A stretch of 64,000 nucleotides of DNA from Oscillospiraceae bacterium (GTDB taxonomy: Bacteria; Bacillota; Clostridia; Oscillospirales; UBA929), in contig WRKO01000002.1 in NCBI GenBank assembly GCA_009782215.1, positions 111,850 through 175,849 on the forward strand, given 5' to 3'. Position numbers and translations under genes: made by a program. Below, piece after piece: positions 15,944-18,091 of this stretch. The first letter of the stretch is position 1. Every line of letters starts with the position of its first letter. The notes below the pieces were generated by a model. It was given only the letters and a program-made list of their open reading frames with translations, was not told where the DNA came from and made no database searches.

Positions 15944-16396
15944 TCAGCTTTCCATCTGTTTGCCCAAAAACCCCGCGACGGTCTGGGCGAGTTTGTATTC
16001 GGTGTCCGAGTATGGCTGGCCGGTGTCGGGCAGCAGGAAGACCACGGCGCCGGAGACGTCGCCTTCGGCGACGATGGGGGCGGCGAGGCCTGCGTGATAT
16101 TTTTCCGCGCCGTCGGAGACGGGGATTTTGGGGCCGCCTTGCTTGTATTGGTAGATTTGGCGGCTCTCCATAATTTTCTCCAGCTCCTCCCCGACGCGGC
16201 GCTCCATCAAATCGCGCTGCGGCAAGCCGTGGACGGCGATGACCGCGTCGCGGTCACAGACGCAGACCATCGCGCCGGTGGTTTTCCCCAGCGTTTCGCA
16301 TAGCTGCGAGGCGAACGCCGACAGCTCGCCCATAGGGCTGTATTTTTTGAATATCACTTCTCCGTCCTTGTCGGTGTAAATCTCCAACGGGTCGCC
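15944..16396 (-). pseudogene. spoVT: spoVT 3' portion (codons 31-180 plus stop) of a split gene, fused in frame to the upstream recombinase ORF
   Basis: GDPLEIYTDKDGEVIFKKYSPMGELSAF...PIVAEGDVSGAVVF...TVAGFLGKQMES matches my recollection of B. subtilis SpoVT residues 31-178 (GDPLEIFVDRDGEVILKKYSPISELGDF...AAGFLARQMEQ). It has no start codon or RBS of its own. Confidence 0.85.
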
Positions 16397-18091
16397 GCTG
16401 CTGATAACATTGACGGCGTAGATTTTGTCCGGGTGGTTGCGGGACATTTGAAATACAGTATTCCCCTCCGTGGAGGGGTGGCACGAAGTGCCGGGGTGGT
16501 TCACATTTAACAACATATCTATATCAGCTTGCAGTTTAATCTCAATGTGGTCTTCGTAGACGAGGATTTTTTCTATCATCAGCTCCAAGTCCTGCCTGCT
16601 GAGGGCCGGCTTGTCCAGCACGTCGTTGAAGATGTCTATGGCGGTCTTGGCGATGCGGTTCGAGCGGATGACGGCGTTTCGCCGATCGGCGGTCAGCGTG
16701 ATTTGGTTTTGCAGCCCGGTGATGCGGTTCTCGGCCTCGATTTCCATTTCGGCATAGGTTTCCTCGATGACCTCCTCGGCTTCGGGGCGCTTTATGATTT
16801 CCCGTATCTTCTGCCGCTTGATGGCTTTGAGTTCCTCCCGCGCCGCGTCAAGCTGGGTTTCGAGGACGGCCAGCGTCTCGTCATTGTGTTTGACTTCACC
16901 GGCTTCCTTTTTGATTTCTGCTTCCAGCCGGGCAAGCATGTCCGCGGAATGGTCCCGCACACGCTGGACGTAGGATTTCAGCAAGCCGTCCAGCACGTCC
17001 ACCCGCGTGTGGTGGGAAGTGCAGCCCGCCAGACCGCGCTTGTGGTATGACCCGCAGGTGTAGGCGGGGCGCAGGTCGCGGCGGGACATGGAGAACATCG
17101 GGCTGCCGCAGTCGCCGCAACGGATAAAGCCGGAATAGACGTTGTCGTTTTTCCTGACGCCCCGGTAGTGGTTGGCGCCGCGCTTTTTGAGCTGCTCCTG
17201 CGCGATGGCGAAGGCGCGGTATTCGATGATAGGGTCATGGTGGTTTTCAAAGACGATGTGGTTTTCCGCGTCCACCCTGACCTCGGAGCCGTTGATGTTT
17301 TTGCGTTTGAACTTGCCCTGCCGCAGGGTGCCGATATAAAAATCGTTCCGCAGGATGCCCTCAATGGTGGCGATGCTCCACTCCGGCTTGGCGAGCCTCT
17401 TGGATTCCTCGCCGCGTTCTTCTTTGCGCGCCCGCTCGTCCATGCGCGGCGTCGGGATGTGCAGCGCGGTCAGGTGGTTCGCGATTTTTTTGTAGCCCCA
17501 GCCGTCGTTGTATAAGGCGAAGATTTTCCGCACCACCTCGGCGGCGGGGTTGTCCGCCCCGAACGCCATTGTCTTGCTGTTGGTGATGACGTAGCCGTAC
17601 GGCACGGCGCAAATCCATTTGCCGTCGGCTTGCCGCTTCTGGATGACGCTCTTGACCTTCTTGGACGCGTCGGTGACGGGCAGCTCGTTGACGAGAAAGC
17701 GGAATTGGATGGACACCCAGTCGTCATACGTCGGGAAGTCGATGCTGTCGCCGATGGAGATGATACGCACCCCGGCGTCGCGCAGGTCTTCCAGCTCGAC
17801 CAGCCCCCGGCTGTTGCGGCGGGAGAAGCGGGAGAAATCCTTGACCACCAAAATGTCAATCTTGCGTTCCATCAGAAGCGGGCGCAGGGACTGGTAGCCC
17901 TCCCGCTGCTCAAAGGTGTAGCCAGAACGGTCGCGGTCTTCGTAGAAGGAAAGGGCGGAGCCGGGGAACTTGCGCTTGACAAACTCATCGATAATCGCCT
18001 TTTGGTTTTCGATGGAGGTGTTGTCCCTGTCCATCTCCTCGTCCACGGATATGCGGCAATATCCGGCGATGCCGTATGCCTCTGCCACCAT
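15944..18091 (-). CDS. large serine recombinase; the ORF reads through its own crossover site into the spoVT 3' portion (565 aa recombinase-specific plus 150 aa SpoVT-derived)
   Basis: N-terminal resolvase domain (GYCRISVDEE...ENQ, IDILVVKDFSRFSRR), recombinase domain, zinc ribbon (CGDCGSPMF...CGSYHKRGLAGCTSHH), coiled coil, and the ...ILVYEDHIEIKLQADIDML end typical of LSRs. GGAGGTG lies before the ATG at 18091. Confidence 0.9.
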   Translation of the reverse strand: MVAEAYGIAGYCRISVDEEMDRDNTSIENQKAIIDEFVKRKFPGSALSFYEDRDRSGYTFEQREGYQSLRPLLMERKIDILVVKDFSRFSRRNSRGLVELEDLRDAGVRIISIGDSIDFPTYDDWVSIQFRFLVNELPVTDASKKVKSVIQKRQADGKWICAVPYGYVITNSKTMAFGADNPAAEVVRKIFALYNDGWGYKKIANHLTALHIPTPRMDERARKEERGEESKRLAKPEWSIATIEGILRNDFYIGTLRQGKFKRKNINGSEVRVDAENHIVFENHHDPIIEYRAFAIAQEQLKKRGANHYRGVRKNDNVYSGFIRCGDCGSPMFSMSRRDLRPAYTCGSYHKRGLAGCTSHHTRVDVLDGLLKSYVQRVRDHSADMLARLEAEIKKEAGEVKHNDETLAVLETQLDAAREELKAIKRQKIREIIKRPEAEEVIEETYAEMEIEAENRITGLQNQITLTADRRNAVIRSNRIAKTAIDIFNDVLDKPALSRQDLELMIEKILVYEDHIEIKLQADIDMLLNVNHPGTSCHPSTEGNTVFQMSRNHPDKIYAVNVISSGDPLEIYTDKDGEVIFKKYSPMGELSAFASQLCETLGKTTGAMVCVCDRDAVIAVHGLPQRDLMERRVGEELEKIMESRQIYQYKQGGPKIPVSDGAEKYHAGLAAPIVAEGDVSGAVVFLLPDTGQPYSDTEYKLAQTVAGFLGKQMES
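16368..16417 (-). other. hybrid (attR-like) serine-recombinase site: element-type arm, core GGCGACCC, spoVT arm
   Basis: The minus strand reads GCCGTCAATGTTATCAGCAGC-GGCGACCC-GTTGGAGATCTACACCGAC. The core (plus-strand 16389-16396) is identical to the core at 40179-40186. Confidence 0.75.

Follow-up and report, generated by a model that had tools for sequence, protein, structure and literature searches.

Probable attachment sites of a large serine recombinase divide spoVT, in inverted orientation, in an Oscillospiraceae bacterium

In a 64,000-nucleotide stretch of the contig WRKO01000002.1 from an Oscillospiraceae bacterium (hereafter "the window," meaning the whole stretch analysed), the sporulation gene spoVT lies in two pieces on opposite strands, and its 3′ piece continues the reading frame of a large serine recombinase (LSR) gene. 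How did a single gene come to be divided in this way, and could the same recombinase put it together again? The window sequence comes from a metagenome-assembled genome, and we compared it with loci and contigs of relatives, which are labelled here from L001 to L094. We found that the two break points, designated sites A and B, are very likely genuine attachment (att) sites of an LSR that split spoVT, as judged by their identity and anatomy at the sequence level. We also consider it probable that the explanation as a whole holds, in which the sites are hybrids of attP and attB, the LSR belongs to a family that targets spoVT, and inversion is the only reaction left to it. The features on which the argument turns are as follows.

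16368-16417, minus strand: site A, attR-type hybrid (P arm 16417 to 16394, crossover GA 16393 to 16392, spoVT B′ arm 16391 to 16368)
40158-40207, plus strand: site B, attL-type hybrid (spoVT B arm 40158-40181, crossover GA 40182-40183, P′ arm 40184-40207)
16388-18091, minus strand: LSR coding part of 568 codons, the last of which (G-D-P) overlap the core (Pfam domains, SprA similarity)
15944-16387, minus strand: spoVT 3′ fragment, 147 codons and stop, in frame with the LSR (Pfam SpoVT_C, E = 4e−41)
39992-40187, plus strand: spoVT promoter region (39992-40088) and 5′ fragment of 33 codons with a TTG start at 40089 (89% identical to the relative L011 over 196 bp)
40188-40268, plus strand: LSR native 3′ tail, 26 codons and stop, in frame after spoVT codon 33 (alignment with unfused homologues)

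Two hybrid sites and the halves of spoVT

On the minus strand, site A reads GCCGTCAATGTTATCAGCAGCGGC-GA-CCCGTTGGAGATTTACACCGACAA, and on the plus strand site B reads CGCACCATGCGTATCCGCGAGGGC-GA-CCCCACGCTGACGACATTGACGCT. Both sites contain the same 8-bp core, GGCGACCC (16396 to 16389 on the minus strand; 40179-40186 on the plus strand), while the bases that flank the core differ. To score arm symmetry, we compared 24 positions per arm, read toward the core, against a binomial expectation (p = 0.26). The two non-spoVT arms are identical at 16 of the 24 positions (P = 3e−5), and the block GTCAATGTNRTCAGC is present only at sites A and B in the 64 kb (0 expected, 100 shuffles). Together, the arm match and the shuffles rule out chance similarity of the P arms. 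The two spoVT arms are identical at 10 of 24 positions, for which the chance value is about 6. The P arm of site A is the family consensus GTCAATGTTATCAG..CGGC followed by GA, found in 43 loci, and its B′ arm corresponds to spoVT codons 33 to 40 of intact orthologues. The junction at site B has the same sequence in two further assemblies (L009 and L010). The preliminary description of this locus had reported the same coordinates, core and arm identity, all of which we reproduced exactly; its site sequences were also as written here apart from one base in site A (GATCTAC, which is truly GATTTAC), a slip of no consequence.

The TTG codon at 40089 opens LKATGIVRRIDDLGRVVIPKEIRRTMRIREGDP, which corresponds to SpoVT residues 1 to 33 and is followed by 26 unrelated residues and a stop codon. 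The promoter upstream (GCATA-N18-CAACCTA), the ribosome-binding site and the TTG start are conserved. The 3′ fragment has 81% nucleotide identity to the intact spoVT gene of L011. When the pieces are joined at the core, they give a 180-residue SpoVT that is 88 to 93% identical to intact 180-residue orthologues at 100% coverage, and the reconstructed DNA is collinear across the junction with the intact L011 gene (83.5% over 641 bp). The flagellar operon downstream of spoVT is common to the window and L011. The locus thus shares with the skin element and its like an interrupted sporulation open reading frame (ORF) that precise recombination restores, here to a 180-residue SpoVT.

In L011 and L012, the intact gene carries the uninterrupted site as B-GGCGACCC-B′, with an arm symmetry of just 8 to 10 of 24; it is a different sequence from attP that shares the central dinucleotide, as is expected of an attB. 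The spoVT arms had been described beforehand as a weaker, attB-like palindrome: weaker they are, but the palindrome barely rises above chance. A 36-nt attB region that is 100% identical to that of the window also occurs in a different organism (L094, positions 198-233), where the flanking spoVT sequence is only 73 to 88% identical. Judged by this sequence comparison, the attB target site appears to be far more conserved than the rest of spoVT.

The fused ORF (15944-18091, minus strand) is intact and encodes 715 residues. It has the catalytic, recombinase and zinc-ribbon domains of large serine recombinases (Resolvase, PF00239, residues 8-159; Recombinase, PF07508, 183-304; Zn_ribbon_recom, PF13408, 319-375), followed by a full SpoVT_C domain at 589-714. 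The closest solved structure is SprA of SPbeta (SprA/YokA, E = 5e−17), and the N-terminal domain of TnpX is also a detectable homologue. Residues conserved across the other 13 aligned sequences, among them the putative catalytic R13-I-S15, are present in the enzyme, and a sigma-70-like promoter lies upstream of its gene. The 26 residues that follow SpoVT residue 33 at site B, TLTTLTLWERFCMAMDGLARRLGLGT, align with the C-termini of unfused LSR homologues of 590 to 604 residues, in which the tail follows the pattern DKVY-VNVISxGDPxxxTLTxxxFxxxMxxLxxR.

The P and P′ arms of the window are collinear with the continuous 3′ end of unfused LSR genes in L002 and in L093, whose enzyme is 86% identical, and with L093 the collinearity extends to about 83 bp past the core, the position of the native stop codon. 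The attP-like palindrome centred on GA, which the preliminary description had reconstructed from the two arms, therefore has natural counterparts in these two loci. Both the reconstructed attP of the window and the sites of relatives are imperfect inverted repeats, about 50 bp long, centred on a non-palindromic dinucleotide. The natural attP of L002 is symmetric about GA at 19 of 24 positions, and the relatives as a group, including the reconstructed sites of L006, L033 and L072, range from 18 to 21 of 24. In L093, the nearest relative in the attP state (5060-5215), exactly the central GA is missing through a 2-bp deletion, and the LSR gene has a premature stop; L093 and L011, with its intact spoVT, are from one sample.

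The polarity of serine-integrase sites is set by the non-palindromic central dinucleotide. To locate the exchange, we relied on comparative evidence from the att pairs of relatives. The P arm conforms to the consensus GTCAATGTTATCAGTnnCGGC in 43 fused loci, where the switch to spoVT always comes right after GGCGA. The attL and attR of L006 share only GGCGA, as the base 3′ of GA differs, and those of L072 share only GACCCGT, as the base 5′ of GA differs. Because these two shared stretches overlap only in GA, the exchange is bracketed to the GA that had been proposed as the crossover, and it would be confined to these 2 bp if the mechanism is common to the whole family. On this comparative evidence, each site has the composition of a hybrid, a P half and a B half that meet at the central 2 bp. 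A break directly after GA is also seen at four unrelated junction types (L001/L040, L038, L047).

In the latter loci (L001 near 11709, L040 near 2507, and also L038 and L047), the P arm and GA are joined to unrelated DNA. L001 and L040 share GTGGTTGTGTAATGATACAAGG after GA, and in L001 a DDE transposase gene then follows. These junctions suggest events at secondary sites, or else an insertion sequence that landed precisely on the crossover.

We propose that an attP inside the 3′ end of the LSR gene and an attB in spoVT (about codons 24 to 40) were exchanged at the central GA to yield sites A and B. Site A (P-GA-B′) would then join the LSR in frame to SpoVT residues 34 to 180, and site B (B-GA-P′) would join SpoVT residues 1 to 33 to the native 26-residue tail of the LSR. 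The earlier suggestion that each site is one attB half plus one attP half agrees with what the halves rebuild, SpoVT from one set and attP from the other. The anatomy of sites A and B is itself textbook.

A family of recombinase islands in spoVT

To place the window LSR among its relatives, we scanned one genome per species and found that at least 585 genomes encode an LSR relative. We inspected the arrangement of LSR and SpoVT_C in the best 80 of them. SpoVT_C directly follows the LSR in 70 of the 80 genomes, and the LSR frame runs into it in 69 of these 70. In 69 of the 70 genomes, the SpoVT_C part stays open for 143 to 149 codons until its natural stop, and in the remaining one it runs off the contig. 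In a single locus among the 70 (L075, 11758-11937), a 178-bp gap separates the end of the LSR from SpoVT_C, which is out of frame. A separate search with the LSR returned more than 100 clusters of LSR::SpoVT_C fusions and a minority of unfused proteins of 590 to 604 residues. Among the best 80 are Ruminococcus flavefaciens 007c and ATCC 19208, Dysosmobacter segnis BX15, Flavonifractor sp. An100 and Oscillibacter sp. GMB15532, named strains that are presumably cultured isolates. The LSR::SpoVT_C fusion is visible in the genomes of D. segnis BX15, R. flavefaciens 007c and Flavonifractor sp. An100, and for Anaerotruncus massiliensis it is suggested by the name of a database protein.

An in-frame fusion in 69 of 70 genomes, annotated in databases as a single protein, could also represent a stable functional chimera, in which a recombinase has acquired a GAF-like sensor domain and no rearrangement takes place. 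Four lines of evidence make such a chimera very improbable. First, identity to the window ranges from 31 to 85% in the SpoVT_C part and from 59 to 80% in the LSR part; because the former varies with the host and the latter does not, the C-terminal part belongs to the host. Second, a matching spoVT 5′ fragment with a P′ arm lies at the other end of islands. Third, some members are unfused and retain the native tail and attP. Fourth, a termite-gut metagenome-assembled genome (L042, 11700-11850) carries an LSR of the same family in spoVT in the opposite orientation, without a SpoVT_C fusion. The LSR ORF of L042 runs toward the spoVT 5′ fragment, crosses the site, whose core is GGTGACCC, and continues into the antisense strand of the fragment (643 residues).

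Relatives have the ordinary arrangement wherever their contigs reach far enough. In L006/L007, L033 and L072, the spoVT 5′ fragment with its P′ arm is located 6.8 to 11.6 kb upstream in direct orientation, so that in L006, L033 and L072 attL and attR surround a discrete element, which they do not in the window. The islands (L006/L007 and the LSR-proximal parts of L003 and L005) encode a NikA-like protein or relaxase, RhuM, and restriction-modification or other defence genes. A relaxase is present in the direct-repeat island of L006, and homologues of relaxase, NikA or RhuM are present in L003, L005 to L008 and L093. A prophage origin of the family was set aside, as just 7 relatives are found in IMG/VR. 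On sequence comparison, the family appears to consist of small mobilizable islands, widespread in Clostridia, that share this exact insertion point in spoVT. Our literature search found no published description of this LSR family and no paper that links spoVT with an integrase or an intervening element.

Inverted orientation of the sites and its origin

What sets the window apart from these islands is the orientation of its sites, which are head to head and 23,790 bp apart, as read directly from the sequence. The preliminary description had given the strand of each site but had not drawn the consequence, an inverted rather than a direct pair. Three further features lie between them.

16394-40181, no strand assigned: segment between the crossover points, 23.8 kb, which would invert on attL × attR recombination (gene and domain content)
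18076-19113, plus strand: Mrr-type restriction endonuclease gene, element cargo (Pfam Mrr_cat, Mrr_N)
19517-19756, plus strand: conserved 79-residue ORF of the element family, candidate recombination directionality factor (family hidden Markov model)

The segment contains the LSR, Mrr and 79-residue ORFs, two LytTR/GHKL two-component systems, a Big_5 protein gene, EAL-HDOD and AlkZ-like genes and the spoVT 5′ end, and also tuf-fusA-rpsG-rpsL (minus strand), a mannitol-dehydrogenase-like gene and groES-groEL (plus strand). To the left of site A are a BspA-type leucine-rich-repeat gene and the flagellar operon from fliK to flhA, all on the minus strand; to the right of site B are a deoxyinosine glycosylase gene, thrS, an HD-domain gene, fucI, an aldolase gene and further chromosomal genes. 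The preliminary description had concluded that the chromosome is in the integrated attL/attR configuration. The composition of the sites bears this out, but the topology does not, because two head-to-head sites with housekeeping operons between them do not delimit an excisable insertion. With the sites inverted and the str and groESL operons enclosed, inversion is the sole reaction open to the LSR.

Serine integrases on their own drive attP × attB recombination, and with a directionality factor an inverted attL/attR pair yields inversion. In the window, one attL × attR event would rebuild a 180-codon spoVT beside the flagellar operon, with codons 1 to 33 and the conserved promoter placed before codons 34 to 180. 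The same event would rebuild a 594-codon native LSR gene, complete with attP, beside the deoxyinosine glycosylase gene. By analogy with other LSRs, it would presumably need a directionality factor, for which the conserved 79-residue ORF is our candidate. Counted with a hidden Markov model across 102 sources, this family of ORFs of about 85 residues is matched in 81, usually 100 to 450 bp upstream of the LSR. The window member has no Pfam or NCBIfam match, a Foldseek search of the PDB with its AlphaFold2 model (pLDDT 75) gave nothing better than E = 0.66, and a word-indexed homologue search returned only 8 proteins. We infer that the enzyme may still perform the inversion; any timing of the event, as well as the part played by the small ORF, is likewise conjectural.

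How did the sites become inverted? In the closest relatives with sequence (L003 and L015), fucI directly follows tuf in the same direction, whereas in the window the two genes are mutually inverted, which places an inversion breakpoint between them. Two histories fit this arrangement. The LSR could have carried out an attP × attB inversion from an element located next to tuf, or a normal 11.2-kb insertion could have been followed by an unrelated inversion of 12.7 kb. At the presumed secondary junctions (27.56-27.64 and 40.27-40.33 kb), we found neither inverted nor direct repeats. Neither GC nor AT skew across the window changes sign at 16.4 or 40.2 kb, and the skews give no indication of the long-term orientation.

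The second history would make the locus a fossil integration, in which an element of about 11 kb entered in direct orientation and a later, unrelated inversion (27.6-40.27 kb) turned attL around. The sites would be genuine but unused, and with spoVT permanently split the organism would sporulate poorly or not at all. We regard such a fossil as a possibility to be taken seriously, although we would not favour it. Flipping 27.6-40.27 kb back also restores the co-orientation of tuf and fucI, and it gives an element of 11.2 kb that falls inside the size range of the islands in relatives. The missing relaxase, the absence of the alternative state from the public data searched, and the existence of a decayed relative (L093, with GA lost from attP and a truncated LSR) point the same way. 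However, the window retains the LSR ORF with its separate 26-codon tail, both arms, and spoVT with its promoter and two halves, all in intact form. The unrelated inversion would also have had to break within about 60 bp past the native LSR stop, out of an element of about 11 kb, and without repeats at its junctions. Moreover, an inverted attL/attR pair is still a good LSR substrate, so that a trapped element need not be an inactive one.

The inverted arrangement could also arise trivially, if the contig were mis-joined and the true element lay in direct orientation. The sequence is that of a metagenome-assembled genome, the Big_5 gene has internal repeats at 25.2-25.4 kb, and the independent contig L010 ends inside the same gene, at about 25.85 kb as calculated from its reported length and range. 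Nevertheless, an assembly artefact is highly unlikely. The junction of the B and P′ arms with the glycosylase gene region is 100% identical in two other assemblies, as is the block from tuf to the spoVT 5′ end, and one of these assemblies spans tuf to the glycosylase gene; the site B side is therefore no one-off assembly error. The 925-codon Big_5 ORF is continuous through the suspect region, an assembler is not misled by a core of only 8 bp, and a direct arrangement needs the spoVT 5′ fragment on the minus strand, which no assembly has.

With the fossil and the artefact set out, we return to the inversion brought about by the LSR, against which several observations count. The linkage of site A to the rest of the segment (18-26 kb) is known from one contig. 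The attP arms of the window, at 16 of 24, are the least symmetric of the family. Relaxase, NikA and RhuM homologues were not found in the window, whereas an integrative mobilizable element has a relaxase and an oriT beside its integration module; without a mobilization gene the copy is a degenerate one and may be fossil. The family and fold searches of the 79-residue ORF gave nothing that marks a directionality factor. The exact restored SpoVT is not among the best 120 proteins listed in our comparison, where the best match has 93% identity. A 37-mer of the restored attP has no match in metagenome contigs, and a 36-mer of the restored attB matched just a different organism (L094). The flipped state, and with it the occurrence of both orientations that would mark an invertible switch, was not found in public assemblies. 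Exact-protein look-ups of neighbouring genes and junction scans returned the same state in two other samples only. Weighing these points, we think that an active inversion switch at this locus is conceivable but falls somewhat short of an even chance.

The recognisable remnant of the element comprises the LSR, Mrr and small ORFs (16.4-19.8 kb) and 83 bp on the P′ side. The window cargo (Mrr, the two-component systems and Big_5) has no counterpart in the other 100 loci that would mark the far boundary of the element. GC content falls to 0.49 in the region of the Mrr gene, the true start of which is probably downstream of 18151.

Relation to known rearrangements

Sporulation-gene rearrangements have been described for sigK, spsM, spoVFB, spoVR, gerE and yabG, all of them mother-cell genes restored by excision (PMC4191935, PMC5595907, PMC10747680). 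Like skin with SpoIVCA (sigK), SPbeta with SprA-SprB (spsM), gin with GirC-GirX (gerE), skinCd of Clostridioides difficile and yin (yabG), the window combines att sites of about 50 bp, a short core and the restoration of an ORF (PMC4191935, PMC5595907, PMC5025042, PMC10747680), and SprA of SPbeta is the closest solved homologue of its LSR. The window differs from these skin-like elements in four respects. The target is spoVT, which in C. difficile depends on sigmaF and sigmaG, has its role in the forespore and is indispensable for heat-resistant spores (PMC3789822), so that, by inference from C. difficile, the mother-cell specificity of the described cases would probably not extend to spoVT. 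The family consists of mobilizable islands with a relaxase rather than prophage-like elements. Its attP lies inside the LSR ORF, and integration therefore swaps the C-terminus of the enzyme. Finally, the window sites are inverted, and restoration by excision is replaced by a topology that allows inversion only.

A second parallel comes from the heterocysts of Calothrix sp. NIES-4101 (PMC11249958), in which gene fragments also lie on opposite strands, site-specific inversion between inverted repeats has been proposed, and recombinase genes adjoin the repeats. Calothrix, however, is a cyanobacterium in which nif genes are rearranged in a terminally differentiated cell and in which restored contigs were observed by resequencing (PMC11249958). 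In the window, the restored state was not found, and it is the future germ-line cell that needs spoVT.

The inversion that we propose has an engineered equivalent. In memory switches built with Bxb1 or phiC31, inverted attP and attB sites recombine to attL and attR and flip the DNA between them, and the integrase together with its directionality factor flips it back. The window would be a natural chromosomal case, with 23.8 kb of housekeeping genes between the sites and an integrase gene that crosses one of them. The integrase gene of Mx8 (intP/intX) reportedly spans attP as well, so that integration alters its 3′ end and the prophage and free enzymes differ in their C-termini. Mx8 Int is a tyrosine recombinase; in our family, by comparison, the tail that is swapped in is a folded host domain, the 147-residue SpoVT_C. 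Tn4451, with TnpX, is an example of an integrative mobilizable element with a serine recombinase. Such elements are found in Firmicutes (PMC5704250), and the relatives of the window element likewise combine a relaxase and a NikA-like protein with cargo for defence or restriction-modification and have their LSR at one end, whereas the window copy is without mobilization genes and cannot excise as a circle. Site recognition and directionality of serine integrases are treated in PMC3783163.

The unusual points of the locus are its forespore target, the size of a family for which we found no description, and the inverted topology of the window copy. In the described rearrangements of mother-cell genes, the excised DNA is discarded with the dying cell. 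Because spoVT acts in the forespore, at least in C. difficile, its restoration would have to fall in the future germ line and be undone later; if the gene is not restored, the element blocks sporulation. One scenario that would reconcile these demands is a germ-line-reversible rearrangement, in which the LSR reassembles spoVT in the forespore (through excision in most hosts and through the 23.8-kb inversion here) and, once the spore has germinated, splits it again by its default recombination, attP × attB. The swap of C-termini, from the 147-residue SpoVT_C to the native 26-residue tail, would then set the direction of the reaction together with the 79-residue partner. We consider this scenario unlikely. 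If true, it would represent the first case in which a forespore gene undergoes programmed rearrangement, as well as a serine-integrase switch that is natural and rewritable, and restoration in the germ line that is later undone would be a mode of control so far undescribed.

The LSR family is very common in gut and rumen Clostridia, and SpoVT is a regulator needed for mature spores in the species studied. If the islands switch sporulation off in many gut anaerobes, they would bear on the transmission and persistence of the microbiota. The window copy cannot be lost as a circle; any restoration of its spoVT would therefore be a reversible flip, which makes the locus a natural test case. For the development of serine-integrase tools, the family offers a defined attP/attB pair, a mapped GA crossover, many naturally occurring variants, which cover both polarities, and a candidate for the partner protein.

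Several further features of the window were recorded. A plus-strand ORF at 27579-28976 was rejected as a gene, as it is the shadow of tuf (27636-28838, minus strand), which completes the rpsL-rpsG-fusA-tuf operon. The BspA-type leucine-rich-repeat gene (14948-15541, minus strand) is located between the spoVT 3′ end and fliK and is absent from this position in L011. The two LytTR response-regulator genes (19833-20466 and 22198-22825) are inverted paralogues, with 469 nt that are 78% and 124 nt that are 75% complementary, and flank a GHKL histidine-kinase gene (20681-22126). Tandem-like repeats of 41 nt, spaced 81 to 102 nt apart, occur at 25218-25441 inside the Big_5 gene. At 34557-34599, just upstream of groES (34616), there is a perfect 19-bp inverted repeat containing TTAGCACTC-N9-GAGTGCTAA, which is presumably an ordinary CIRCE/HrcA operator.

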